DNA of 64,000 bases from Puniceicoccales bacterium (lineage in GTDB: Bacteria; Verrucomicrobiota; Verrucomicrobiia; Opitutales; JAIRLM01), in assembly GCA_031278455.1 (NCBI GenBank), contig JAITKJ010000006.1, positions 5,704 to 69,703 of the forward strand, written 5' to 3'. The notes below the pieces were generated by a model. The model did no database searches. It saw nothing but the letters and a program-made list of their open reading frames with translations, and had not been told where the DNA came from. Position numbers and translations under genes: made by a program. Within the stretch, counting starts at the first letter, position 1, and each line of letters starts with the position of its first letter. Below are positions 8,037 through 27,834 of this stretch, piece after piece.

Positions 8037-9554
8037 CTAAAAATGACAAGCCATCATCGAGCTTTTTAGTTCATGCTTTCCCTCTGAATCGCAAATGGCC
8101 GATGTGAAAGCCATCCCATATGCATGGGCGCAGTGTGGAGCCGTAATTCTTGCTGGATTTTTTTTCGCATAATCATCTATGAATTTTTCAGAGATCATGA
8201 GTCCAGCATTAATTTCCATGGTCCCATTTCCGCTTATGTCAAAGTTGAGTGTGCTTGTGCGCACAGCGTGACCTTTGATATTATTGCTATAAGCTCCCGC
8301 CACCGCAGCATTTCCGTCGTCCAATAGTTCCATGTGATATGCTGACATTGGACGGCTACATTCCCCTTGCATGTAATGAAATCGGCATACTGCCTTAAAT
8401 GCATTTAAGGCCTGTTCTGGGCTGAGACCGGAATCTTTCAACTTGCATAAGATAAATTTTGCGGCGGTTTTCCCATCACTCCTCTTATCTTTTATATACT
8501 CATCCATATTTATAGGGATTCCATTGATTTTTATAATGATATGCTTGGACATGCGGTTAATGTCGCTAAAAAGCATATGTGTCCCAATCTTGTCGCTTAT
8601 TTCTTCCAAATAGCTGTTGAAAATTTCGGTGTTTTCAAAAAATTTTGCCCCACCAGGCATGGGATCCGCTGTTAAAGCCGCGATGGCAGATTCGCCCACA
8701 AGAGCATCATTACTTTTGCGGGACACGCGGTCGGAAAAGCTTCTTACTGAATACTCAGAATGTTGTAAATAGTCATTCATGTTTAAATTGGTAAACTTCG
8801 TTCCACCGACGGTATTAGCGCATAAATCCTCGAAAAACTCCGACTCAAGCTCCATGCCAATCTTGCACGCGCCAAGAAGTGCCGCCATGGCTATGTCTCC
8901 ATTTTTTGATGCCAAGGCGCGAAGAATAATTATCTGGGCATCGGGGGCTTGTTTTTTAATAAACTCGACCATTCCGGAGTTTGGGTCCAAAAATTGCTGC
9001 CGAATCTCTTTGTGGCCATTTGGTATTTTTTCTCCGGCACTTTCACGTGCCCTACTGCCCAAATTCGCAATAGCAATAAGCGCATCCTGAGGAGATTGCA
9101 TAGTGGCGACTGTTTTTGCCCCATTGAAACATTCAATTGCAGTATCGCGGAGCTCATCATTCCGGCAAATTTCAGCATTAACCGCTTGCTCGTGAACTGC
9201 GCGGCTTTCTGGAAACAGACGCGATATTTTTTGCGCCCATGGACCCTTGGTATGGTCAATTGTTAACATGTCCGTAATTGAAGAGGTAATAGATGGCATT
9301 ATTTTGCTGAAAAATTTTTCTACGCACTGCGGCATGATGCATGAACACCATTCTTTAAAGCAATTGACTATCTTCTGAAAAATCTCTTTTCTTGTTGACG
9401 TTTGCGGCGAACTACACTTTGTTTCCACATGCTGCGTCGAATTGTTAGAGGTTATTGTGCGCGAATTGTCAACTACCGCTTTAGGCTGAGACGCCTCAGC
9501 GGTAGCGACAGGTGGACTGAATCCAGTCCCAACATACGGAGGCATTTTTATCAC
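8037..9554 (-). CDS. Hypothetical protein (505 aa), no recognisable domain; candidate secreted effector, co-oriented downstream of the USP-like gene
   Basis: Long uninterrupted ORF with a Ser/Thr/Pro-rich, probably disordered N-terminus and no TM segments. It lies about 150 bp downstream of 9706-11337 on the same strand. Confidence 0.6.
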   Translation of the reverse strand: MIKMPPYVGTGFSPPVATAEASQPKAVVDNSRTITSNNSTQHVETKCSSPQTSTRKEIFQKIVNCFKEWCSCIMPQCVEKFFSKIMPSITSSITDMLTIDHTKGPWAQKISRLFPESRAVHEQAVNAEICRNDELRDTAIECFNGAKTVATMQSPQDALIAIANLGSRARESAGEKIPNGHKEIRQQFLDPNSGMVEFIKKQAPDAQIIILRALASKNGDIAMAALLGACKIGMELESEFFEDLCANTVGGTKFTNLNMNDYLQHSEYSVRSFSDRVSRKSNDALVGESAIAALTADPMPGGAKFFENTEIFNSYLEEISDKIGTHMLFSDINRMSKHIIIKINGIPINMDEYIKDKRSDGKTAAKFILCKLKDSGLSPEQALNAFKAVCRFHYMQGECSRPMSAYHMELLDDGNAAVAGAYSNNIKGHAVRTSTLNFDISGNGTMEINAGLMISEKFIDDYAKKNPARITAPHCAHAYGMAFTSAICDSEGKHELKSSMMACHF

Positions 9555-9705: not shown

Positions 9706-11337
9706 TTAACTCGAGTCTGCTTTACTTTTTGAGTAAATTAACATATATGCATTCATTTTATGAGTTCCGTCACCGCATAAATCAGATATTTCAGCATCTG
9801 TACACCATCGAACGTAACTGTCGTTCATTGCTTGCATCTCGCCACCGACGACTTGAAAACACTCATAATGCCCAGAGTCAGGCCCTCCATGATGGCTGAC
9901 AACACTCCTTAACTCATAGGGCACATCTCCTTCTATTGTTGGTATGTCGAGATTCCTGCCGAAATCAAATTGGTTGTTATCTTTTTGCCCACTTTTGCTG
10001 AATCTATTTATAAGAAATATCAGATAATTCGGACAGCCAAAAATTTTTATTTCCTTCAGGACCTGACCATATTGATTGTCTTCAAGCCGGTAGTCGACCG
10101 TCGTACGAGACCATGCGCCAATGCCATTGGGAAGATCTTTCGCCTCTACATCAACGGGTATACAGTTTGATCTGTCGTCAGAACCCATGACAAATTGTTC
10201 TCCACATGGCCGCCCATCAGCAAGTCGGCACCCAAGCACTTGGTAGGCAACCGTAAATCCATGATTGACTTTAACCGGACAGGCTAGATCCCCTTTCGGC
10301 AAATAGACTTCCGCATCAGCAAGCACCGCCACTTCGTCATTCGTTATGTCGCCGTTGGCTAGTGCTTCATCCACTCGATTATTAGCATCTTTTTGGGACA
10401 TTGCGGCACAACATTCTTCAATATGCCTTAAAAGCGTAATCGTAAATTCATGAGCATCGCACTGCATGCTCGACGGCTTGTTCCATACATTGCGCTCAGC
10501 CAATATGGCTAAAAAAGCTTGCATCAAATCCTCCGAATGCTCTACCGGCCTAGTTCCATAAATGTGTCCAAAAATCTCGCCCAGGAGACGGATAACATAA
10601 AATTTGTTGTCTCCATGAAACACTTTTGCCAAAACTTTAACAATGGCGTGAAAGCGAGGGCAGTTGGCAAGGGCTTGTAGGGTCGCGTTCATGTAACACG
10701 TTGCGCCGAGATTTCGGAGCCCATACACTGGACGCGGATTTGGTGTTGGGTCTGGTGTGGGATTTGGTTGTGGGTCTGGTGTGGGATTTGGTTTTGGGTC
10801 TGGTGTGGGATTTGGTTTTGGGTCTGGTGTGGGATTTGGTTTTGGGTCTGGTGTCGGATTTGGTGTTGGGTCTGGGGTTGGATTTGGTTTTGGGTCTGGT
10901 GTCGGATTTGGTGTTGGGTCTGGGGTCGGTTCGGGTACTGGTTTTGCCTCTTGCTGCGGAATAATAGTCGACGCTTGTTTCTCCTGCTTTACCGTCAAAT
11001 TTTTCGTATGTCTAGCCCGTCCCAGAAACGAAAAAAAGATTTGCGACAGCGGGATCTTATTAATTTTGCAGTAAATGCCGAATACACAAAGATAAATAAA
11101 TCCGACGGCAAAAACAATGGCTAAAATTGTGGTTGCGCCGTTACATGCCGCAAAAGCGCTCCATTCGCACTTGGTAACGCAAATACGGCATAAATTCGAA
11201 ATCTCAGAAACGGCCCGACTTGACAGCCCGAAATAGCTCAATGGGGATATAACGCATGCCATACAAAACGAAGCGGACATTATACAACACTCCACCAGAC
11301 CATCCAAAGGCCATTTGCCGATTAGAGGGCTGGACAC
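9706..11337 (-). CDS. Membrane-anchored USP-family (peptidase C19) ubiquitin-specific protease-like protein
   Basis: Cys box [16 protein letters not shown] (Cys214), His box [18 protein letters not shown] (His490) and the downstream MNDSYV element. N-terminal hydrophobic segments (residues ~20-40, ~66-105) and a ~70-aa PxPxPx spacer (residues 132-202). Confidence 0.85.
10732..10944. repeat. Imperfect tandem repeat, 24-bp unit (about 8-9 copies), in-frame within the USP-like CDS, encoding (PNPTPDPK)n
   Basis: The plus strand reads GGGTCTGGTGTGGGATTTGGTTTT iterated with point variants. The repeat also creates the three spurious + strand ORFs at 10701-11124. Confidence 0.9.
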
Positions 11338-11476: not shown

Positions 11477-12952
11477 ATGCTTAGGCCAAAATTAAAGATC
11501 CTCATGGTCGCTTCGGAAGCGGTTCCATTCGCCAAGGCGGGTGGGCTTGGCGACGCGGTTTCTTCTCTGGCCAACAGCCTTGTCGCCCTTGGTCATGACG
11601 TACGCGTGTTACTGCCACTTTATTCCATCATTCCGCAGAATCTACGGCAAAATTTTCAGCCACTGCCTGGAGTTTTTTCCGTCCACTTGGAATGGGAACA
11701 TTGGGCTAGATTATGGGAATTTACGCCACCCAATGGCCCGCGTTATTATTTCGTCGAATATGACCACTTTTTTTCCCGCGATCGGCTCTATGACGGTCCC
11801 TATGGGGGATTTGAAGACAACCCCAAGCGCTTTGCATTTTTATGCCGTGCGGCTATCGATTTACCAGAATTTCTCCAATGGATACCAAATGTTTACCATG
11901 CACACGACTGGATGGCTGCATTGGTTCCCGTCTATTTAGAAACAGTGGCACGGAAGGGGGCATTGGTACACACTGGCAGTGTTTTAACCATCCATAACCT
12001 GCAACATCAGGGCTATGCGCACCGATCCATCATTAACTATGCGGGGCTCCCAGATGACCTCTGGCGGTCGGATAAATTGGAAGCCTGTGGGGGTGTGAAT
12101 TTTCTTAAAGGCGGCATTTATTTCGCCAACAAATTGACCACGGTAAGCCCAACCTACGCCGAAGAAATCCGCACGCCCGCCTTCGGTTGTGGATTGGAAG
12201 ATGTTTTCCGATTTCGCGGTGGAGACATGGTTGGAATTTTAAACGGTATCGACGAAAATCTCTGGAATCCAGCCACAGATGCGGCCTTGCCGGCAAACTA
12301 TGATATCGAGAATTTGGAGGGTAAGGAACTCTGCAAAATTGATTTTTGTCGCGAACAATTTGGCGACAGGACAACAGACAAGCGTCCACTCTTGGTTGCC
12401 ATTTCACGACTGTACGCACAAAAGGGTTTGGATGTGTTGGGAGATATTCTTCCATGGGTTGTCGAAACCATGGCCGTACGCTTTGCAATTCTCGGCTGCG
12501 GCGACTGGCTTTTAGAAGAGCATTTGGCCTCGGTTGCGCATCGTTTTTCTAATTGTATTTGGTTTTATCGGGGTCATGACGAGACGTTGGCGCGTCGTAT
12601 GACTGCGGCGGCGGATTTTTTTATCATGCCTAGCCGTTTTGAGCCCTGTGGCCTAACTCAGCTTTACTCCATGCGCTATGGGACCTTACCAATCGTGCGC
12701 GCCACGGGCGGGCTGAGAGATAGCGTTGTTTCTCGCGCGCAGGGAGTAGAGCACGCCACGGGATTTGCCTTCAACGATTTAACCCATCAGGCCCTTTACG
12801 ACGTTATTGGGTGGGCCTGCGCCACTTACTATGACCATCCCTATGACGCACTTATCATGCGCCAAAACGGCATGCGCAAGGACTTTTCATGGAATCAATC
12901 CTCCAAGCGGTACTTGGATTGCTATCACTGGGCAATGGATAAAAAATCATAG
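11477..12952 (+). CDS. glgA: Glycogen synthase (ADP-glucose type)
   Basis: MLRPKLKILMVASEAVPFAKAGGLGDAV (KxGGL motif) and a GT5/GT1 C-terminal core (MPSRFEPCGLTQLY). The ATG at 11477 fits family N-termini better than the ORF-track start at 11357. Confidence 0.9.
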   Translation: MLRPKLKILMVASEAVPFAKAGGLGDAVSSLANSLVALGHDVRVLLPLYSIIPQNLRQNFQPLPGVFSVHLEWEHWARLWEFTPPNGPRYYFVEYDHFFSRDRLYDGPYGGFEDNPKRFAFLCRAAIDLPEFLQWIPNVYHAHDWMAALVPVYLETVARKGALVHTGSVLTIHNLQHQGYAHRSIINYAGLPDDLWRSDKLEACGGVNFLKGGIYFANKLTTVSPTYAEEIRTPAFGCGLEDVFRFRGGDMVGILNGIDENLWNPATDAALPANYDIENLEGKELCKIDFCREQFGDRTTDKRPLLVAISRLYAQKGLDVLGDILPWVVETMAVRFAILGCGDWLLEEHLASVAHRFSNCIWFYRGHDETLARRMTAAADFFIMPSRFEPCGLTQLYSMRYGTLPIVRATGGLRDSVVSRAQGVEHATGFAFNDLTHQALYDVIGWACATYYDHPYDALIMRQNGMRKDFSWNQSSKRYLDCYHWAMDKKS

Positions 12953-12958
12953 ACTTTT

Positions 12959-14701
12959 TTATCGCTTGCGCGGGAGAGGTTTTTGGGACATCGATTTTCG
13001 GCCAACGTATTCTGCCACCTTTTTATTATGCGCTTCAATTAATTCTCGATTACGTTTCTGTGCAGCCACCTCTTCTTTTTGACTTTCTCGTAGCGATTTT
13101 CCGACAGCCATCTCGCAGAGTGCAGCCCCGGTCCCAACCGGATTAGTTGGATCATACTTAACCCATTCACTTGTCCGAACCAAATGGTCGTCCTCTGTCC
13201 CGGCTAATGCAAACCAAATGTTGCCGTTCGTGTCAGACATACTGATTGTTGGCAGTGCAATCCCGCATGTGTTTTCGCCAAACTGCACGGGCAGGAAAAT
13301 CCATCCAGTTAGAACGGAAAATATTTTTTCATGCATTTCGCGCAAACTGTCTTGCGGCAAATTCTTAAAAAATTTTAAAAAAACATCCACAGCTTGACGA
13401 TCGGCTTTTATGACCGCCCAAACCGATCGATCTACATCCACGTTGTCTCCTGGAAGTGCGATGCCACGCGACATCTCCGTTTCGTTCTTTGTGCCTGAAG
13501 TGATACCGCTAACAACTTTGTCAATATATGGATTCGTTTTAAGAATTTCTTGAATTTCTTCTGGAATCGGCAACCCTCCGATTGTTTGGTCTTGTTCCTT
13601 AATTGTGATGCGATCTACGCATCCGTATCGTCGAAGTAGATCCATGCCAGTTTGCGGTGAAACGGGCACTGGATGTTCTCGAAGCTCAGCTGTGGCCGCA
13701 TGTCTACATGCTTCGACCTGAGCTTTCACCTTTCCAATATTTTCTTTTTTGCCTTCACTATCTTTGAATGTTTCTAGATCTATCATAGCCAATGGGTCTA
13801 CGGGAAAAGGAAACATTCCAGCAACCTGCTGCGCTTGATCTGCTGTTTTGACGGTCTCTTCGCGCAAAATTTTCAGCGAAGCGTCTTTGTACTGGACGTT
13901 TCGATCAACTGCCGAACCGTCGGTTATTTTCAGAATGGTTTGCGTAACTCCGCTTACAGGAGGTATCGGTTCCATGTGAATGACATCATCAAATTTGCCG
14001 AAGAGATAATCTTTGACGTTCTGAATTGTAGCCAAGATGAGATCAAAAAATGCGAGAACTTCAAAATTGAGGCACTCCTGTCTTTTCAAACGCATGATAG
14101 CGTCTGCGGCACGAATAGCAGCGCCAACAAGTTGCGGCACCTCCTTTATTGACAGAAGCTTCTCCAGGTACTTTGTGACCGCATTGCCATATTTTTTTTC
14201 GTCTGCCGCTCGAGTGGCAAGAGCACTGGTTAAATCGAATACAATTTGTTTTATATTGCTTCCTGCCTCACCAAGTTGCAGGCAATTTAAATCAATTTGT
14301 TTAAGAAGCTCTATCGCGACACCGCAACGCGTGATCGTTTTTAATCCATTTATTACTATAGATGGAAACGTCCAAATATCCCTTTTTTTGACATAAGTAA
14401 AAACAACTGGTGTTGCAAATGCTAGCATCGCGAGCAATGCCCCAAAAGATCCGATTCCAGTAGAAAAAGTAAGGATATATCCAACGATTGGAATCGATCC
14501 AATGGGAAGGACGGTAAAGACAATTCCAAGAGATGAGAAAAACCCAAGGGCAAGAATGGCGATAACAAAACAACGCCCAGCATTTGTTTGGGTGGCAAAA
14601 TTCCAACAGAAATCTAAAAAAGTCGGCCTATTCAGTGCAACAACTGCTGACTTTGTTAGATCATTCGTCAAATCTTGAGGATATGCCGGCTTGAAAACCA
14701 C
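12959..14701 (-). CDS. Hypothetical membrane protein (580 aa) with an N-proximal cluster of hydrophobic helices and a large unknown soluble domain
   Basis: Hydrophobic block CFVIAILALGFFSSLGIVFTVLPIGSIPIVGYILTFSTGIGSFGALLAMLAFATPVVFTYV, followed by ~450 aa without recognisable motifs and a basic C-terminal tail. Confidence 0.65.
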   Translation of the reverse strand: MVFKPAYPQDLTNDLTKSAVVALNRPTFLDFCWNFATQTNAGRCFVIAILALGFFSSLGIVFTVLPIGSIPIVGYILTFSTGIGSFGALLAMLAFATPVVFTYVKKRDIWTFPSIVINGLKTITRCGVAIELLKQIDLNCLQLGEAGSNIKQIVFDLTSALATRAADEKKYGNAVTKYLEKLLSIKEVPQLVGAAIRAADAIMRLKRQECLNFEVLAFFDLILATIQNVKDYLFGKFDDVIHMEPIPPVSGVTQTILKITDGSAVDRNVQYKDASLKILREETVKTADQAQQVAGMFPFPVDPLAMIDLETFKDSEGKKENIGKVKAQVEACRHAATAELREHPVPVSPQTGMDLLRRYGCVDRITIKEQDQTIGGLPIPEEIQEILKTNPYIDKVVSGITSGTKNETEMSRGIALPGDNVDVDRSVWAVIKADRQAVDVFLKFFKNLPQDSLREMHEKIFSVLTGWIFLPVQFGENTCGIALPTISMSDTNGNIWFALAGTEDDHLVRTSEWVKYDPTNPVGTGAALCEMAVGKSLRESQKEEVAAQKRNRELIEAHNKKVAEYVGRKSMSQKPLPRKR

Positions 14702-14811
14702 TAGTTTTTAATACATTAGATTCTAACATTTTGTCAAACTGTATCTGTGCGGAGTGTGCTCGAATTCCATCCACTGGATAAAATTAACTTATGGGCATGT
14801 GCTAAGTTTTT

Positions 14812-17003: not shown

Positions 17004-18227
17004 TCACGTCGCGATTACTTCGCCGGCGGTAGGCACATTGGATTCATCATTGGAGAGTATGGCGCTTACGACGTCATGCATATTCGCGCACGGAGGATCA
17101 GGCAATTTAAAACGCTGCCCAAAAACGCCTGGATTCTGATAGCCCGTAAGAAACGTCAGCGGGAGGTCGGCAACATTTGCAAATTTTTGCAGACGGGTTT
17201 GCAGCTTTGGCATGATGAAACTATAAACCTGGGTAGCGTTTTTTGCCATCCGCGCCTGGCCAATGATTTGCTGGTGGACAGGACCTATTCCATAGGGGTT
17301 GTAGCAAAATGCTTTGCATCCGTATTTTAGCCCAAGAAATTGAGCGAACATGCCTTCAATGTAGCTTCCAGCTGGAATGACGTCGTCTCCATAAGCCATC
17401 AACACATTTTGAAACGCCGCATCGAAAGCTTCTGTGCGCGCATCTTGCCATGGGCATGCGGCGCAGGCCAAAGCAGCCAGCCGTTCCGAACGGTTTGTGT
17501 CAAGCGTGGGAAGGAAGTACGTGGCACCATTTTGCTCAACGGCGATTGCAAAACCAATGCCCAAAGCGGCGTTTTCGAATCGATGAACGGCGATATCCTG
17601 GCCGTTGTCGAGTGTGACCGCGCTTGAGCCGCCAACAAACTCGAACCCAGCCTTTTGAAGAGCAATTTGCTGATTGGCAAGTTGATTTGGCCAGGTGCGA
17701 TTTTGTGATACGGGCTGGCTTTTCCCATGGGCCAATTTTTCACAAAGTTCGCTCGTAAATCGAATGTGTTTCTTATCCTCTGCGGAAAAGTTGCTGGCAT
17801 GAAACGGTATTGGGTCAAGCTGATAACCTGTTTTTTTGAAGGCCGCTTCCGGATCTCTGCTGGCAATTTTGTAGGCAATAAGTGAGAGCACGACAGATAA
17901 GGCCAACAATCCCGCGCTGATGATCCAGCCGATTGGCCCAGAAAGAATTGCAACACCGATTCCCAAAAATTTGAGAACCAAAAAAATCATATTGCTAGCG
18001 ACGGAAATGCCTGTGAGTACCCAGTTCAAAGTATTCCGCACCGTGCTCGATAAGCTTTTTTCGCTTTGTAATAAATTCATGACTGGGATATATCCCGTGA
18101 TACCGCGTGCGTCCGTTGCGCCTAACTCGAGTTTTGTGCTTTTATTTTGCGGTGCCGCGCCAATAGTATAGGGCGTGTCTGTGGAGCGTGCAATCATTGG
18201 TTGCGTGAATTTTAATGAGGCAGGCAA
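17004..18227 (-). CDS. Hypothetical membrane protein; apparent paralogue of the 4136-5254 lipase-like protein with a degenerate nucleophile motif
   Basis: Paired hydrophobic helices LNWVLTGISVASNMIFLVLKFLGIGVAILSGPIGWIISAGLLALSVVLSLIAYKI. The C-terminal AGSYIEGMFAQFLGLKYGCKAFCYNPYGIG aligns by eye with VGHSMGGAFASAIAVKEGISSITFNSMGWG, and FKLPDPPCANMHD with FHLPNCTESAHIH. Confidence 0.6.
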   Translation of the reverse strand: MPASLKFTQPMIARSTDTPYTIGAAPQNKSTKLELGATDARGITGYIPVMNLLQSEKSLSSTVRNTLNWVLTGISVASNMIFLVLKFLGIGVAILSGPIGWIISAGLLALSVVLSLIAYKIASRDPEAAFKKTGYQLDPIPFHASNFSAEDKKHIRFTSELCEKLAHGKSQPVSQNRTWPNQLANQQIALQKAGFEFVGGSSAVTLDNGQDIAVHRFENAALGIGFAIAVEQNGATYFLPTLDTNRSERLAALACAACPWQDARTEAFDAAFQNVLMAYGDDVIPAGSYIEGMFAQFLGLKYGCKAFCYNPYGIGPVHQQIIGQARMAKNATQVYSFIMPKLQTRLQKFANVADLPLTFLTGYQNPGVFGQRFKLPDPPCANMHDVVSAILSNDESNVPTAGEVIAT

Positions 18228-18284: not shown

Positions 18285-21029
18285 TCACTGGACCCATCGA
18301 AAAGATCGCATTTGGAGTTTCCCGTCGGCCATGCGTTGGACGATGGCTTCGCAGACGGCTTTGGTAAATACGGTGCCGTCAACCGAATTTACAGAATCTC
18401 CGTACCCGCGAATGGAAAAAGTATCCGAGCGGACGACAAACTGATTGCCAAAAAATTGCAAAAAATCCGCCTGTGTGACAAAGGCCGGTGCTTGTGCATT
18501 TGTTGGACCATTTGCCGAGAGAGAGTCAAACCACGCTCCTTCGCGTAGATCCGTCGATTGGGCGGAAAAATTTTCCAAGTCTTCATTTATTTTGGATTTA
18601 TCAATGGCCCGCTGAATCAGTCCCGCTTGTGCCGCTTCGCCAAGGGATAGTTCCCGATTGATAAAGGCGCTCAAAGTCGGGAACGGTCCACATTTTTGGA
18701 TCTCTCCAACAATACATTCGGCTAATCGATCTAGGTCGTCTTCGGATAAAAAATGCTGCCGCTGGAATCGAGACCCCAGCGTGCTTTGGCTGTTAAAACG
18801 CGGCAAATAGTAAGCCCGCCGTCCGGAATCATATGGCATGCATCGGAGGAGCAGCTTCCACGTTTCCACGGAGGTGCAGTTGACGTTGAAGGCGCCTTCA
18901 AGGACGAGATCGCGAGCGATTTGAGTGCAATCGTAAAAATTGCCTCCAGGTCCCCATGGCCGACATGTGGTAAAAAATTGAGGCACATCTGCATCAAATC
19001 CGCTGAAACCGCTGACAAAATAATGGTCGTAAAGGGCTTCGTTGAGGAGATGTGAATAATCGAAGAGCATGGATTGGCGGAAATAGGCGTGGTTTTTCCA
19101 AAGATCCACTGTCGATGCGTAATGGTGAAAAATCTCATCGAGTGGCATGAACGGGCAGGCAAGGCTATTACCTACGGCATATGCCGGATGATAGGAAAAT
19201 GGCGCCAGCGACACATGTTGGAGAAAACCAATGGAAAGCAATTCGCGGGGCAGGTCGAATAAAACGGCCGACGCGGAACCGTCTCCGAAAAACCCAGGAA
19301 ATTGAACCGCAGGTGCTAAATTGTAAAATTGTGCCGTCCAAGGAGCGAAGTAGCGGCGAAAAGGTCCTGATAAACCAAGCAACGACGTATGTTCAAAGGT
19401 ACTGCGTCGGAGTTGCGGTGCCCGCGGATCGTAATGGGCCAGCCACTGATTGGTACCAGTCCCGAGATTGGCCCAGGCCAAGAAAGAAAATAGCTCATGA
19501 GGTTTGCCGTCCCGCGGAACCTCGTAGGACTGGGTTTCATCCCAATCAACAAAATCGCTGATTTCCTGCAGTAAATTTCCATCAGCATCCAAAAGTCGCA
19601 TGGAAAGATTAAACCAAGAGACTGCGCCAGTCATGGAATTGACCCGTTGAATGGTAATCGCCGGCACCTCTTTCAATAAATTGAGCGTAACGGCCGCCGT
19701 CAGATTTGGGTCGTCAATGGTAAAGGTACGCACTTCGCCGGCGTTTAATCCGGTTCGTATTTCACTCTGGAAAATAATTTTTGCGCTATTGTCACCAAAT
19801 CGGATGAGTGTTTTGTTGCCAGCCGCCGTTTCCACCAGGAAGCCGGGCAGCGTTCCAGCCGAGTTAGTTGGAGACGCAGAAAGCAGCTGAAACACGTACG
19901 TGCTTGGCAGAAATGGTACGTTGTATGGATTCCAAATGGAGACCGTCGGCGACAGGCGGATAATCGCCTGATTGGCACCAACTTCGGCAGAAACGGTTAT
20001 GAATAGGGCAACGGGAATGGGATAAATGCCGCTTTGGATCGGAATGTTAAGTCCAAAATCCGGCTTAGACAAATCTCCCAATTCGTAATTAAGCGCATTG
20101 GTTGCCGGATAAACGATGCGGTAAACAGGGCCGCCGGCACACGGGTAAATGCCAGATAGGGACATGGATTTTGTTGCATGGAAGAACGATGCCACCTGAT
20201 TGAAGGTCGGCGGTGGTTCCGGATAGAACGGATCTCCGGGAAAGATATACTCCACATTTGAGGATGGAAATTTTTGCAATTTCAGCGTCAGGTCCCGCAG
20301 CCATTCGCCGGCGGTATTTTTCAGCAAGCAGCGGCCGCACAGCGTCAAATTATGGAAAAAGCTGTCAAATTCTCTGCCGAGATTCCGTTGCAACGATGAA
20401 AATGAAAGGCAGTTTTCCAGCGACTGCATCTTTTCGAAATTAAGACTAAGTGAATTGGGGTAAAATTGCTGTAAGATGCGATCTTGTGGTAGGGGTGAAA
20501 AGGGAAGATTGATACGCAGTTTGTCGCATTCGTCCTCCACCCAATAAGCAAAGTGTCCTACGGTTTTCCCGCTAAAATTTATGGGCAACCGCGGGCATTT
20601 GTCAACGAGCTCAAGGTCATCGAAAATGGCCACCTCATCCCCAGCAATGTCCCGTGGAGCATCTTTTTGAAAGCGTATATCTCCCGAAAGCGATACCAAC
20701 CAACGGTTAAAGACCGGTTTGCCGGCGACGATAGTCCAAACTCCCGTCCAGTGGGCATGGGCTTCGGAAATTTCTTCACCACCACTTCTCGCACGCGCGG
20801 TGACGCAACATCCTTCATTGTAGATTTCATTTAGTTCAAGCATTGCGGCTCGAAGAGCCGTCCAAGCGTTTTGCCGGGCGATGTCTCGATGCAGTTGATT
20901 TTGCGTCCTCAAGGTTTGAATGCGGACGAACCGTTCCGCGGTCATCATCAGTGCGCCAAGTACCGCTAGTGCCCCTAACACCAATAACAGCGCAAAACCA
21001 TCCGAACGTATACTCCGCACGATGCGCAA
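18285..21029 (-). CDS. Large (914 aa) GspK-like minor-pseudopilin-related protein, no adjacent secretion or pilus genes
   Basis: N-terminal short basic leader plus hydrophobic helix SDGFALLLVLGALAVLGALMM, a GspK-like YWVEDECDKLRINL element, and C-terminal FVVRSDTFSIRGYG...AVCEAIVQR resembling the GspK C-terminus. The functional call is tentative. Confidence 0.55.
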   Translation of the reverse strand: MRIVRSIRSDGFALLLVLGALAVLGALMMTAERFVRIQTLRTQNQLHRDIARQNAWTALRAAMLELNEIYNEGCCVTARARSGGEEISEAHAHWTGVWTIVAGKPVFNRWLVSLSGDIRFQKDAPRDIAGDEVAIFDDLELVDKCPRLPINFSGKTVGHFAYWVEDECDKLRINLPFSPLPQDRILQQFYPNSLSLNFEKMQSLENCLSFSSLQRNLGREFDSFFHNLTLCGRCLLKNTAGEWLRDLTLKLQKFPSSNVEYIFPGDPFYPEPPPTFNQVASFFHATKSMSLSGIYPCAGGPVYRIVYPATNALNYELGDLSKPDFGLNIPIQSGIYPIPVALFITVSAEVGANQAIIRLSPTVSIWNPYNVPFLPSTYVFQLLSASPTNSAGTLPGFLVETAAGNKTLIRFGDNSAKIIFQSEIRTGLNAGEVRTFTIDDPNLTAAVTLNLLKEVPAITIQRVNSMTGAVSWFNLSMRLLDADGNLLQEISDFVDWDETQSYEVPRDGKPHELFSFLAWANLGTGTNQWLAHYDPRAPQLRRSTFEHTSLLGLSGPFRRYFAPWTAQFYNLAPAVQFPGFFGDGSASAVLFDLPRELLSIGFLQHVSLAPFSYHPAYAVGNSLACPFMPLDEIFHHYASTVDLWKNHAYFRQSMLFDYSHLLNEALYDHYFVSGFSGFDADVPQFFTTCRPWGPGGNFYDCTQIARDLVLEGAFNVNCTSVETWKLLLRCMPYDSGRRAYYLPRFNSQSTLGSRFQRQHFLSEDDLDRLAECIVGEIQKCGPFPTLSAFINRELSLGEAAQAGLIQRAIDKSKINEDLENFSAQSTDLREGAWFDSLSANGPTNAQAPAFVTQADFLQFFGNQFVVRSDTFSIRGYGDSVNSVDGTVFTKAVCEAIVQRMADGKLQMRSFRWVQ

Positions 21030-26955: not shown

Positions 26956-27834
26956 ATGAAGCGCTGGTTGGTGGCTGGTTTGGCGTTGTTTGCTCCGTTT
27001 TGTGCCTCTGCGTCTGTAGCAGTTGTATCGCAAATGTCAGAGGTGAATAGTGAGGTTGCCAAGATTGCCAAAACTGTTTCGCCGCGAGACATTTGGGTTG
27101 TCTACGACATTGACATGACCCTGACAAAGCCAGAACATCCAGCCGTTGAACTGGCCAATCTGCAGTGTCACCACCAGGTGTTGGGGGAGATTTTCGCTAA
27201 TACGACGCGCGAACAGAAGGAATTAGCCAAATACCTCGCAGTCGGGTTGTATCCCGGGGCAACAACGGAAAAAAAGACGGCGAAATATGTCAAGAATTTG
27301 CAAAAATTGGGCGTCGTATCCTTCGCCCTGACGTCGGCAAAGAGTGGAAATATTACGCTCAGGGACTCGACAAAACCCATCTATGAGATCCGCCCACAGG
27401 AGCTCAACGCACTTGGAATTCACTTTGGAGGAGCATTTCCATTTGAAACTTTATTTTTGAAAAAATTTCCAGCGGATGGGGGTAGCTTTCCAACTTACAA
27501 CCAGGGCGTTATTTGTTCCAATGAAAAGCCGAAAGGGGCCGTACTTTGCGCGTTTATGGACGAAATTAAAGCCACACCAAAGGTGATCGTTATGGTGGAT
27601 GACCGGCTGCATAATTTGCAAGAGACGAGAAAAGCCCTCCGCGCGCGCTACCCGAAGGTCCGCTTCGTTGCCTTCGAATATACAGGAGCCACGCGTGATC
27701 CAAAATCGATAAAAGAAATTTCCGCTGATGAATTTCGTGCTTTCTGGGAACCAATCGCCGTACAGGCCAAAAAAAATTGCCCAGCCCCACAGCCGCCGCG
27801 TCATGCCGGAAAAAGCTTCGCGCCAATTAGGTGA
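26956..27834 (+). CDS. Secreted HAD-superfamily phosphatase-like protein (DUF2608-like)
   Basis: Signal peptide MKRWLVAGLALFAPFCASASVA. HAD motif I VVYDIDMTLT (DxDxT), motif II LTSAKSG and motif IV VMVDDRLHN. Confidence 0.65.
   Translation: MKRWLVAGLALFAPFCASASVAVVSQMSEVNSEVAKIAKTVSPRDIWVVYDIDMTLTKPEHPAVELANLQCHHQVLGEIFANTTREQKELAKYLAVGLYPGATTEKKTAKYVKNLQKLGVVSFALTSAKSGNITLRDSTKPIYEIRPQELNALGIHFGGAFPFETLFLKKFPADGGSFPTYNQGVICSNEKPKGAVLCAFMDEIKATPKVIVMVDDRLHNLQETRKALRARYPKVRFVAFEYTGATRDPKSIKEISADEFRAFWEPIAVQAKKNCPAPQPPRHAGKSFAPIR

Follow-up and report, generated by a model that had tools for sequence, protein, structure and literature searches.

Ubiquitin-directed effectors are a hallmark of intracellular bacteria, and nearly all of those characterised come from animal or amoeba pathogens and are mostly CE-clan or OTU enzymes. 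A 64,000-nucleotide stretch of a Puniceicoccales metagenome-assembled genome (MAG; assembly GCA_031278455.1, contig JAITKJ010000006.1, positions 5,704 to 69,703; hereafter the window) holds an open reading frame (ORF) at 9706-11337 on the minus strand that raises a question of a different kind, namely what a protein of eukaryotic ubiquitin-specific protease (USP, peptidase C19) type is doing in this bacterium and in what form it is made. Reading the ORF at its full length, we think it fairly probable that it encodes a single-pass, membrane-anchored deubiquitinase of the USP class, probably belonging to a flagellate symbiont and acting on host ubiquitin near a membrane. What we say below of enzyme activity, substrate, membrane topology, export route and host identity we infer.

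The catalytic domain and its genomic surroundings

The ORF and the features that identify its protease part are these:

9706-11337, minus strand: whole ORF, 543 amino acids, GTG start at 11337 and stop codon at 9706-9708
9733-10722, minus strand: predicted USP (peptidase C19) catalytic domain, residues 206-535, from the Pfam UCH match and predicted thumb, palm and fingers
10711-10713, minus strand: Asn209, putative oxyanion-hole residue, five residues before Cys214; invariant in the seven-sequence family alignment
10696-10698, minus strand: Cys214, predicted catalytic nucleophile; invariant in the same alignment and aligned with the NTCY Cys-box of USP46
10444-10464, minus strand: QCDAHEF, residues 292-298, predicted QDE-box; D294, A295 and F298 invariant, aligned with QQDAHEF of USP46
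9865-9870, minus strand: His490, predicted catalytic base, and Tyr491, predicted aromatic gatekeeper; G489, H490 and Y491 invariant, aligned with GHY of USP46
9820-9822, minus strand: Asp506, predicted third catalytic residue, in the NDS motif within MNDSYV; invariant, aligned with the FDD motif of USP46

A preliminary description of this DNA had recognised both USP signature boxes from the letters, and Cys214 (10696-10698), His490 (9868-9870) and the MNDSYV that follows all lie where it had placed them. The profile search it had proposed as a check gave a match to Pfam PF00443 (UCH) at E=8.8e-31, with 107.8 bits against a gathering cut-off of 23.9 and covering profile positions 2-254 of 254. 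Searched as a single sequence against the PDB, the protein matched USP8, USP18, USP12, USP46, USP14, USP30, USP2, USP7 and USP15. A profile of the family reached E~4e-38 for USP46, USP7 and USP12, and its alignment with USP46 places the Cys-box, QDE-box, His-box and FDD/NDS aspartate in register. The Cys-box reads GLRN209LGATC214YMN, in which Asn209 occupies the position, relative to the catalytic cysteine, of the oxyanion-hole residue of canonical USPs and would have that role. The QDE-box is named among the conserved USP regions (PMC3486910), and an aromatic gatekeeper beside the catalytic histidine serves as a USP criterion (PMC10643670). We interpret the domain, as far as its sequence can tell, as a canonical USP that has every catalytic residue.

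Structure prediction, likewise proposed at the outset, points the same way. An AlphaFold2 model of residues 204-543, built from the seven-sequence family alignment, reached a mean predicted local distance difference test score (pLDDT) of 87 and a predicted template modelling score (pTM) of 0.86, with beta strands in the fingers region. Compared by Foldseek with 350,542 PDB chains, it gave 319 matches at E<=0.001, and the best 50 of these were all USP domains (E~1e-19; query-normalised score TMq 0.64-0.74, target-normalised score TMt up to 0.79; ~350 aligned columns), led by Ubp8, USP9X, USP35, USP7, USP30, USP12/46, USP1, USP14 and USP18. The model superposes on these domains at full length and would represent a complete thumb-palm-fingers USP, fingers included. 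We also considered a fingerless USP of the type of Burkholderia TssM and rejected it, as the model can be aligned with fingers-containing USPs from end to end and the N-terminus is a transmembrane (TM) helix followed by proline-rich coil; TssM was not among the PDB matches listed for the family profile (best 60 of 108).

These matches also bear on which modifier the enzyme would remove. It could be a host-directed isopeptidase for a ubiquitin-like protein (Ubl; NEDD8, SUMO-like, ISG15-like or protist-specific) or for a non-canonical linkage such as ester-linked ubiquitin on lipid or lipopolysaccharide (LPS), rather than a general deubiquitinase. Some USP-fold enzymes are indeed Ubl-specific, and USP18, which acts on ISG15, is among both the structural and the sequence matches; USPL1 cleaves SUMO (PMC10719079), the Simkania enzyme SnUSP2 reacts with an ISG15 probe too (PMC10643670), and TssM has esterase activity towards ubiquitylated LPS (PMC10371091). 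We nevertheless regard this alternative as unlikely, given that the best profile matches (USP46, USP12 and USP7) are ubiquitin-specific, that the QDE-box and the ubiquitin-binding fingers are present, and that the sequence gives no hint of another modifier.

The gene itself is part of a bona fide bacterial genome, that of the Puniceicoccales MAG. Pfam and other libraries identified ftsW, RNase G, ligA, glgA, feoB, psd, pssA, lptD, pgi, dnaK and groEL in the window, together with proS, aspS, folD, lepB and a resistance-nodulation-division (RND) efflux pump, all of them ordinary bacterial housekeeping genes, and no rRNA gene (no 16S). The USP gene has NAD-dependent ligA on one side, within 2 kb, and the glgA ORF on the other, only 19 bp away; its homologues, too, have bacterial neighbours, in at least five other contigs (priA/accD/ychF, ileS, H+-PPase, recA and tmk/pnp). 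That protist or giant-virus DNA was mis-binned or mis-assembled into a bacterial MAG is therefore scarcely credible, even though USPs are overwhelmingly eukaryotic, giant viruses encode USPs too, the gene has a lower GC content than the genes that flank it, and lower-termite metagenomes are rich in flagellate DNA (PMC11257099). The USP gene is one ORF without interruption, its 70-kb contig carries bacterial housekeeping genes, the contigs of the homologues are independent of it, an independent Logan assembly recovers the same gene, and even the nearest USPs of eukaryotes or viruses share only 15-24% identity.

The preliminary description had judged the gene and its downstream neighbour more AT-rich than ligA and glgA, and the measured values agree: GC is 0.46 for the USP gene (0.41 at third codon positions, GC3) and 0.438 for the 505-residue gene downstream, against 0.508 for ligA and 0.501 for glgA. 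Together with the 580-residue gene beyond glgA (0.439), these are the three lowest values of 27 genes measured, the others spanning 0.463-0.562. Low GC fits a foreign origin or fast evolution and is not decisive.

Given a bacterial gene, the protease might also serve the bacterium itself. Published accounts (PMC10557695, PMC11601596, PMC11601603) describe bacterial operons that encode E1, E2, a Ubl and a deubiquitinase, some of which act in phage defence, and the USP could by analogy belong to an endogenous conjugation or anti-phage system of this Bil/Bub type and not be meant for host ubiquitin. We consider this highly improbable: no E1, E2 or Ubl Pfam family was found in the genes flanking the USP gene or in the called genes around five homologues, PADLOC returned only a spurious low-complexity match in the proline-rich spacer, and a membrane anchor combined with restriction to a host-associated lineage fits an effector better than an endogenous Ubl system.

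Anchor, tether and start codon

Upstream of the protease, the ORF contains the following features:

11140-11337, minus strand: N-terminal leader, residues 1-66; poorly conserved, pLDDT <50, predicted unstructured
11278-11280, minus strand: ATG of Met20, the likeliest start codon, with GGAG 9 nt upstream
11068-11136, minus strand: single predicted TM helix, ~residues 68-90; Kyte-Doolittle 19-residue maximum 2.63
11014-11073, minus strand: juxtamembrane family motif, residues 89-108, family consensus IYCxIKxxPLxxIFFxFMR
10729-10965, minus strand: proline-rich spacer, residues 125-203, 79 amino acids with 37 prolines (47%), delimited by composition; pLDDT <50, GC3 0.278
10736-10923, no strand assigned: 24-nt tandem repeat, 7.8 copies, encoding (PNPTPDPK)n; Tandem Repeats Finder 93% matches, 0% indels, score 320

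Where the preliminary description had seen several hydrophobic helices at the N-terminus, we find one strong and conserved TM helix; a second hydrophobic patch (residues 11-33) is weak and unconserved. An equivalent helix was present in all five homologues scanned (Kyte-Doolittle maxima 2.0-3.1), and conservation in the family alignment starts at about residue 49. In a full-length AlphaFold model, a helix at ~residues 70-100 has pLDDT 70-78, residues 103-200 fall below 50 without secondary structure, and the USP domain is confident. The same succession of TM helix, motif, proline-rich linker and USP runs through P0127, P0128, P0130, P0139 and P0152 and through extended ORFs in loci L004, L005 and L020, so that the layout proposed at the outset (membrane anchor, then proline-rich spacer, then protease) proves to be kept in nine of ten homologues; the exception, P0132 (369 amino acids as called), aligns over its USP domain and lacks the anchor. 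A hidden Markov model (HMM) of the N-terminal module matched only USP-family ORFs among the 664 ORFs of the window and the homologous loci (E=3e-19 to 4e-35; next best 0.19). We interpret these alignments to mean that the USP domain sits behind a conserved single-pass anchor and a proline-rich spacer.

One ORF outside the family recalls the anchor module. Locus L003 of MAG Gsp477_bin122 holds, 4 kb from a USP homologue, a 614-residue ORF (12884-14728, plus strand) whose N-terminus consists of a TM helix, YC, P-V-I-F-L-W-R-N-M-R-R and then a low-complexity stretch of proline and acidic residues. It aligned in register with the anchor module of P0139 in pairwise BLASTP (E=1e-4); the family HMM did not detect it, and its unrelated C-terminal domain matched nothing. 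Judged by this alignment, the ORF may represent a second cargo on the same anchor.

The spacer is more variable than the anchor. In the window protein the repeat has a period divisible by three, which leaves the frame intact throughout; across the family, between 46 and 328 amino acids, 16-32% of them proline, separate the TM helix from the Cys-box, and one paralogue carries another repeat altogether (three copies of DTIPDVPQxPKPQPEPPPSPP). What is conserved is a long, extended or disordered proline-rich tether whose length is not fixed. The preliminary description had spoken of a rigid proline spacer of ~70 residues that would hold the enzyme at a fixed distance: the spacer itself is real, its rigidity finds no support in the model (pLDDT <50, no structure), and the fixed distance fails because spacer length varies so widely within the family.

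Several products of the repeat were set aside. Three overlapping plus-strand ORFs (87-118 amino acids, GFG/LVL repeats) at 10701-11124 are reverse-frame by-products of the 24-nt unit and no genes, and terminator-like signals at 10836-10906 are artefacts of the repeat. A homologue search with the full-length protein was drawn to the proline-rich repeat, returning procyclin-like and PT-repeat proteins, and the catalytic domain alone was used instead.

Public gene calls begin well inside the ORF. The NCBI call (MDR2340788.1, 340 amino acids, already named "ubiquitin carboxyl-terminal hydrolase") starts at V204, and the JGI call (328 amino acids, same ubiquitin hydrolase name) starts at M216 and leaves out the catalytic Cys214. 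Taken at face value, these two independent pipelines describe a soluble cytoplasmic USP-like protein of 328-340 residues, with the upstream 200 codons untranslated and opened by a non-coding repeat. Three observations are to be expected of such a protein: on either strand, several frames stay open through the repeat region, the proline-rich segment has its best codon-usage score in a frame other than frame 0, and residues 1-66 lack a coding signal, their frame-0 log-likelihood being -0.034 per codon. Yet frame 0 is the only one to score as coding over residues 67-124 (+0.111, against -0.275 and -0.104 in the other frames), codon usage backs frame 0 for residues 204-543 too, the 24-nt repeat is free of indels, and the TM helix and juxtamembrane motif are conserved as protein in the nine homologues at ~30-37% identity, always in frame with the USP domain. 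Furthermore, homologues P0131 and P0140 show the same error: they are anchorless only as called, and their ORFs extend upstream into the same module (L004 7548-9059, 503 amino acids, for P0131; L020 155-1765, 536 amino acids, for P0140). Finally, the JGI start would remove the catalytic cysteine. We therefore give the short soluble protein a very slim chance.

Because the homologues conserve the TM helix and motif in frame with the USP domain, we take the N-terminal region, anchor and tether included, to be translated, and by the same yardstick the NCBI and JGI starts are both too short. The most plausible true start, we infer, is the ATG of Met20. Similar truncation recurs in the family, with at least three members (P0001/P0122, P0131 and P0140) publicly called from within or after the proline-rich linker and without a TM anchor. 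The NCBI call was also found in a Logan contig from SRR14710901, which begins ~70 nt upstream of the V204 start, beside the repeat, and this edge is compatible with an assembly break at the repeat. Gene callers systematically cut such proteins at proline-rich repeats and hide their anchors, in the JGI case at the cost of the catalytic cysteine as well.

Distribution, host setting and proposed role

Close relatives of the window protein are few. An exhaustive HMMER scan of 1.84 billion representatives returned 1,271 USP matches with few close single-domain relatives among them. When 185,579 species-representative genomes were scanned with a degenerate pattern, the only ones to contain relatives (31-36% identity) were the Puniceicoccales MAGs Gsp477_bin122, Cc175_bin47 and Nm470_bin100, the last of which has two anchored paralogues (L005 and L020). 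Two JGI metagenomes also hold family members. In a family-profile search of 5.8 billion proteins, a family member scored 440 bits and the matches after it fell to 122 bits. Among named sequences, USPs of fungi and animals come nearest (22-24% identity), and giant-virus USPs, 15-21% identical to the family, are no closer than eukaryotic ones. High-scoring giant proteins (P0129, P0133, P0134 and others) proved to be eukaryotic tandem USP arrays with inflated summed scores and were rejected as close relatives.

The preliminary description had proposed a phylogeny with eukaryotic USPs as a way to probe horizontal acquisition. In a neighbour-joining (NJ) tree built on 298 columns with 100 bootstraps, the family, whose 11 sequences include ten with the anchor, was monophyletic at 92%, and no eukaryotic or other bacterial USP emerged as a supported sister of the family. 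The family thus stands as a clade, whereas no donor can be named because the tree provides no supported eukaryotic sister. Our reading, drawn from these sequence relationships, is that a eukaryote-type USP would have been acquired long ago and then diversified and duplicated in this bacterial lineage.

Other bacterial USPs came to light alongside the family. Nc350_bin186, a further Puniceicoccales MAG from termites, carries two tandem, divergent USP genes without the family anchor (L013, 8-1411 and 1723-3108, plus strand), one with Gly/Pro-rich N-terminal repeats and the other with a signal-peptide-like hydrophobic N-terminus, and both fall outside the anchored family in the NJ tree. Weak USP matches turned up in scattered MAGs of further bacteria (a proteobacterium, Cytophagales, Poribacteria, Babeliaceae and Leptolyngbya). 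In a word-indexed profile search, the USP nearest to the family from outside it was P0277 (396 amino acids, 24% identity), which lies on a compact Logan contig from SRR17165185 (L017, 1-9191). Several ankyrin-repeat genes are found on the same contig, along with FtsH-like AAA proteases and a P-type ATPase, which suggests another host-associated microbe with a USP.

The MAGs that hold relatives fall in the accession range of Mies and Brune, mBio 2024 (PMC11257099), and their sample codes denote Glyptotermes sp., Cryptotermes cavifrons, Neotermes meruensis and N. castaneus, all of them Kalotermitidae, that is, flagellate-bearing lower termites. Within termite Opitutales, the families LL51 and UBA9783 are described as putative endosymbionts of flagellates, whose reduced genomes have a lower GC content and encode nucleotide transporters (PMC11257099), and this lineage is related to the endonuclear Ca. 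Nucleococcus (PMC11257099; PMC8204192). A host-directed effector role is plausible for a Puniceicoccales bacterium from such a source.

Put together, the mechanism we propose would run as follows. The bacterium would be a member of the Puniceicoccales/Opitutales of the lower-termite gut, probably a symbiont of gut flagellates, and would set the enzyme in a membrane at the host interface, either its own envelope or a host-derived membrane. There the USP domain would cleave ubiquitin, or a close GlyGly-ended modifier, from proteins or surfaces near that membrane, such that ubiquitin-dependent autophagy or other host ubiquitin signalling would be blunted and the symbiont or its compartment protected. 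Three points weigh against this proposal. The charges that flank the TM helix are ambiguous across the family, so that topology cannot be called from them; Sec insertion into the inner membrane would face the USP to the cytoplasm or periplasm, where no ubiquitin is expected; and the 64 kb of the window yielded neither a secretion system nor a secretion signal.

A bolder version, which we hold only tentatively and as rather improbable, would make the anchored USPs a lineage-specific effector family of the verrucomicrobial "Nucleococcus/termite cluster", whose members would be intranuclear or cytoplasmic flagellate symbionts. The N-terminal module would then be a new host-membrane targeting device, and one ancient capture of a protist USP would have been followed by duplication in the symbionts. 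The module, with its juxtamembrane cysteine and basic motif, might be lipidated by the host on the conserved cysteine, and it might be common to other effector domains, the 614-residue ORF in L003 being a possible example. If true, no ubiquitin-directed effector system would have been described before this one in Verrucomicrobiota, nor in any bacterium that lives in symbiosis with parabasalid or oxymonad protists.

The remaining genes of the neighbourhood offered little to connect with the USP. When every window ORF was compared by BLASTP with all the homologous loci, no neighbour proved to be shared, the housekeeping context differing in every contig, and the 505- and 580-residue orphans are therefore unlinked to the USP by synteny. 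Neither orphan matched Pfam, NCBIfam, PADLOC or the PDB. The 505-residue orphan (8037-9554, minus strand) begins after a 151-bp gap downstream of the USP gene, possesses its own promoter-like site (9590-9562) and no hydrophobic segment, and was not found beside USP homologues in the other loci. The 580-residue orphan (12959-14701, minus strand; GC3 0.386) contains, near its N-terminus, a run of hydrophobic windows of about 65 residues (residues 40-104), which calls to mind the bilobed hydrophobic domain of chlamydial Inc proteins. Hydrophobic segments also occur at the N-termini of two more large orphans, of 407 (17004-18227, minus strand) and 914 amino acids (18285-21029, minus strand), neither of which matched Pfam, NCBIfam or PADLOC. 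A DUF2608 protein (PF11019, E=8e-25) is encoded at 26956-27834 on the plus strand; its family is known chiefly from intracellular bacteria (Legionella, Coxiella and chlamydia-like species).

Comparison with known systems

Among described bacterial enzymes, the closest functional precedents for the window protein are the chlamydial effectors Cdu1 and Cdu2, treated below, and SnUSP1-3 of Simkania negevensis (Chlamydiae). The Simkania enzymes have a whole canonical USP domain, all active-site residues and the aromatic gatekeeper (PMC10643670). They are large proteins with hydrophobic regions that might attach to a membrane, and their catalytic domains are active on ubiquitin (Ub) probes, Ub-AMC and chains (PMC10643670). 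They belong to another phylum, however, and are likened here to the termite family by description only, whereas the N-terminal module of the latter matched its own family alone among the 664 ORFs. TssM is likewise a bacterial protease of the USP class with a Cys/His/Asp triad and acts on host ubiquitin, but differs in having no fingers subdomain, a "Littlefinger" loop, an N-terminal Ig-like domain and type II secretion (PMC10719079). It was called the only described bacterial USP in 2023 (PMC10719079), the year in which the three active Simkania USPs were reported (PMC10643670). Cardinium hertigii CAHE_0028 and Amoebophilus asiaticus Aasi_0770 and Aasi_1805 are USPs with Cys-, QDE- and His-boxes from obligate intracellular symbionts, annotated since 2012 and proposed as host-directed effectors (PMC3486910); these come from Bacteroidota, are known from annotation only, have no reported shared anchor and are again likened by description. 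The preliminary description was thus right that a USP fold is uncommon in bacteria, and the TssM, Simkania, Cardinium and Amoebophilus proteins all precede this one, which removes novelty at that level. The eukaryotic USP46, USP12 and USP7, as the best profile matches, share the boxes and the three-subdomain fold at ~19-22% identity and possess no TM anchor. Bil/Bub-type operons place their deubiquitinase beside E1, E2 and Ubl genes, whereas the neighbours of the window USP are orphans or housekeeping genes.

The layout has parallels of its own. Cdu1 of Chlamydia trachomatis has a proline-rich stretch between TM helix and catalytic domain, and TonB combines an N-terminal inner-membrane anchor with an extended proline-rich spacer and a C-terminal domain that reaches across a compartment. 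The C-terminal domain of TonB is unrelated to USP, however, and its spacer spans the periplasm, where no deubiquitinase substrate is known. Cdu1/ChlaDUB1 and Cdu2/ChlaDUB2 are deubiquitinase effectors with an N-terminal TM helix at the pathogen vacuole (inclusion) membrane, but their catalytic domain is of the CE clan (Ulp/SENP-like) and has acetyltransferase activity in addition (PMC6717882), whereas that of the window protein is a USP domain. We see this likeness as an architectural and functional analogy without homology, in which the layout would be convergent.

Bacterial USP-type deubiquitinases, TM-anchored deubiquitinase effectors and the public ubiquitin hydrolase name of this gene are all already known, and for specialists in bacterial deubiquitinases and termite symbiosis the family is a solid, testable lead and no conceptual surprise. 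In the literature examined, no mechanism of host manipulation is documented for the unculturable flagellate symbioses of the termite gut, and the family would be a concrete, testable marker for an intracellular lifestyle in these MAGs. Set against the systems above, what appears to be new is the phylum (Verrucomicrobiota), the setting in termite-gut flagellate symbionts, the family-specific anchor module and the truncated public gene calls; a full, fingers-containing USP with a conserved tether, in several paralogues and species, would widen the repertoire to Verrucomicrobiota and to termite-gut flagellate symbioses.

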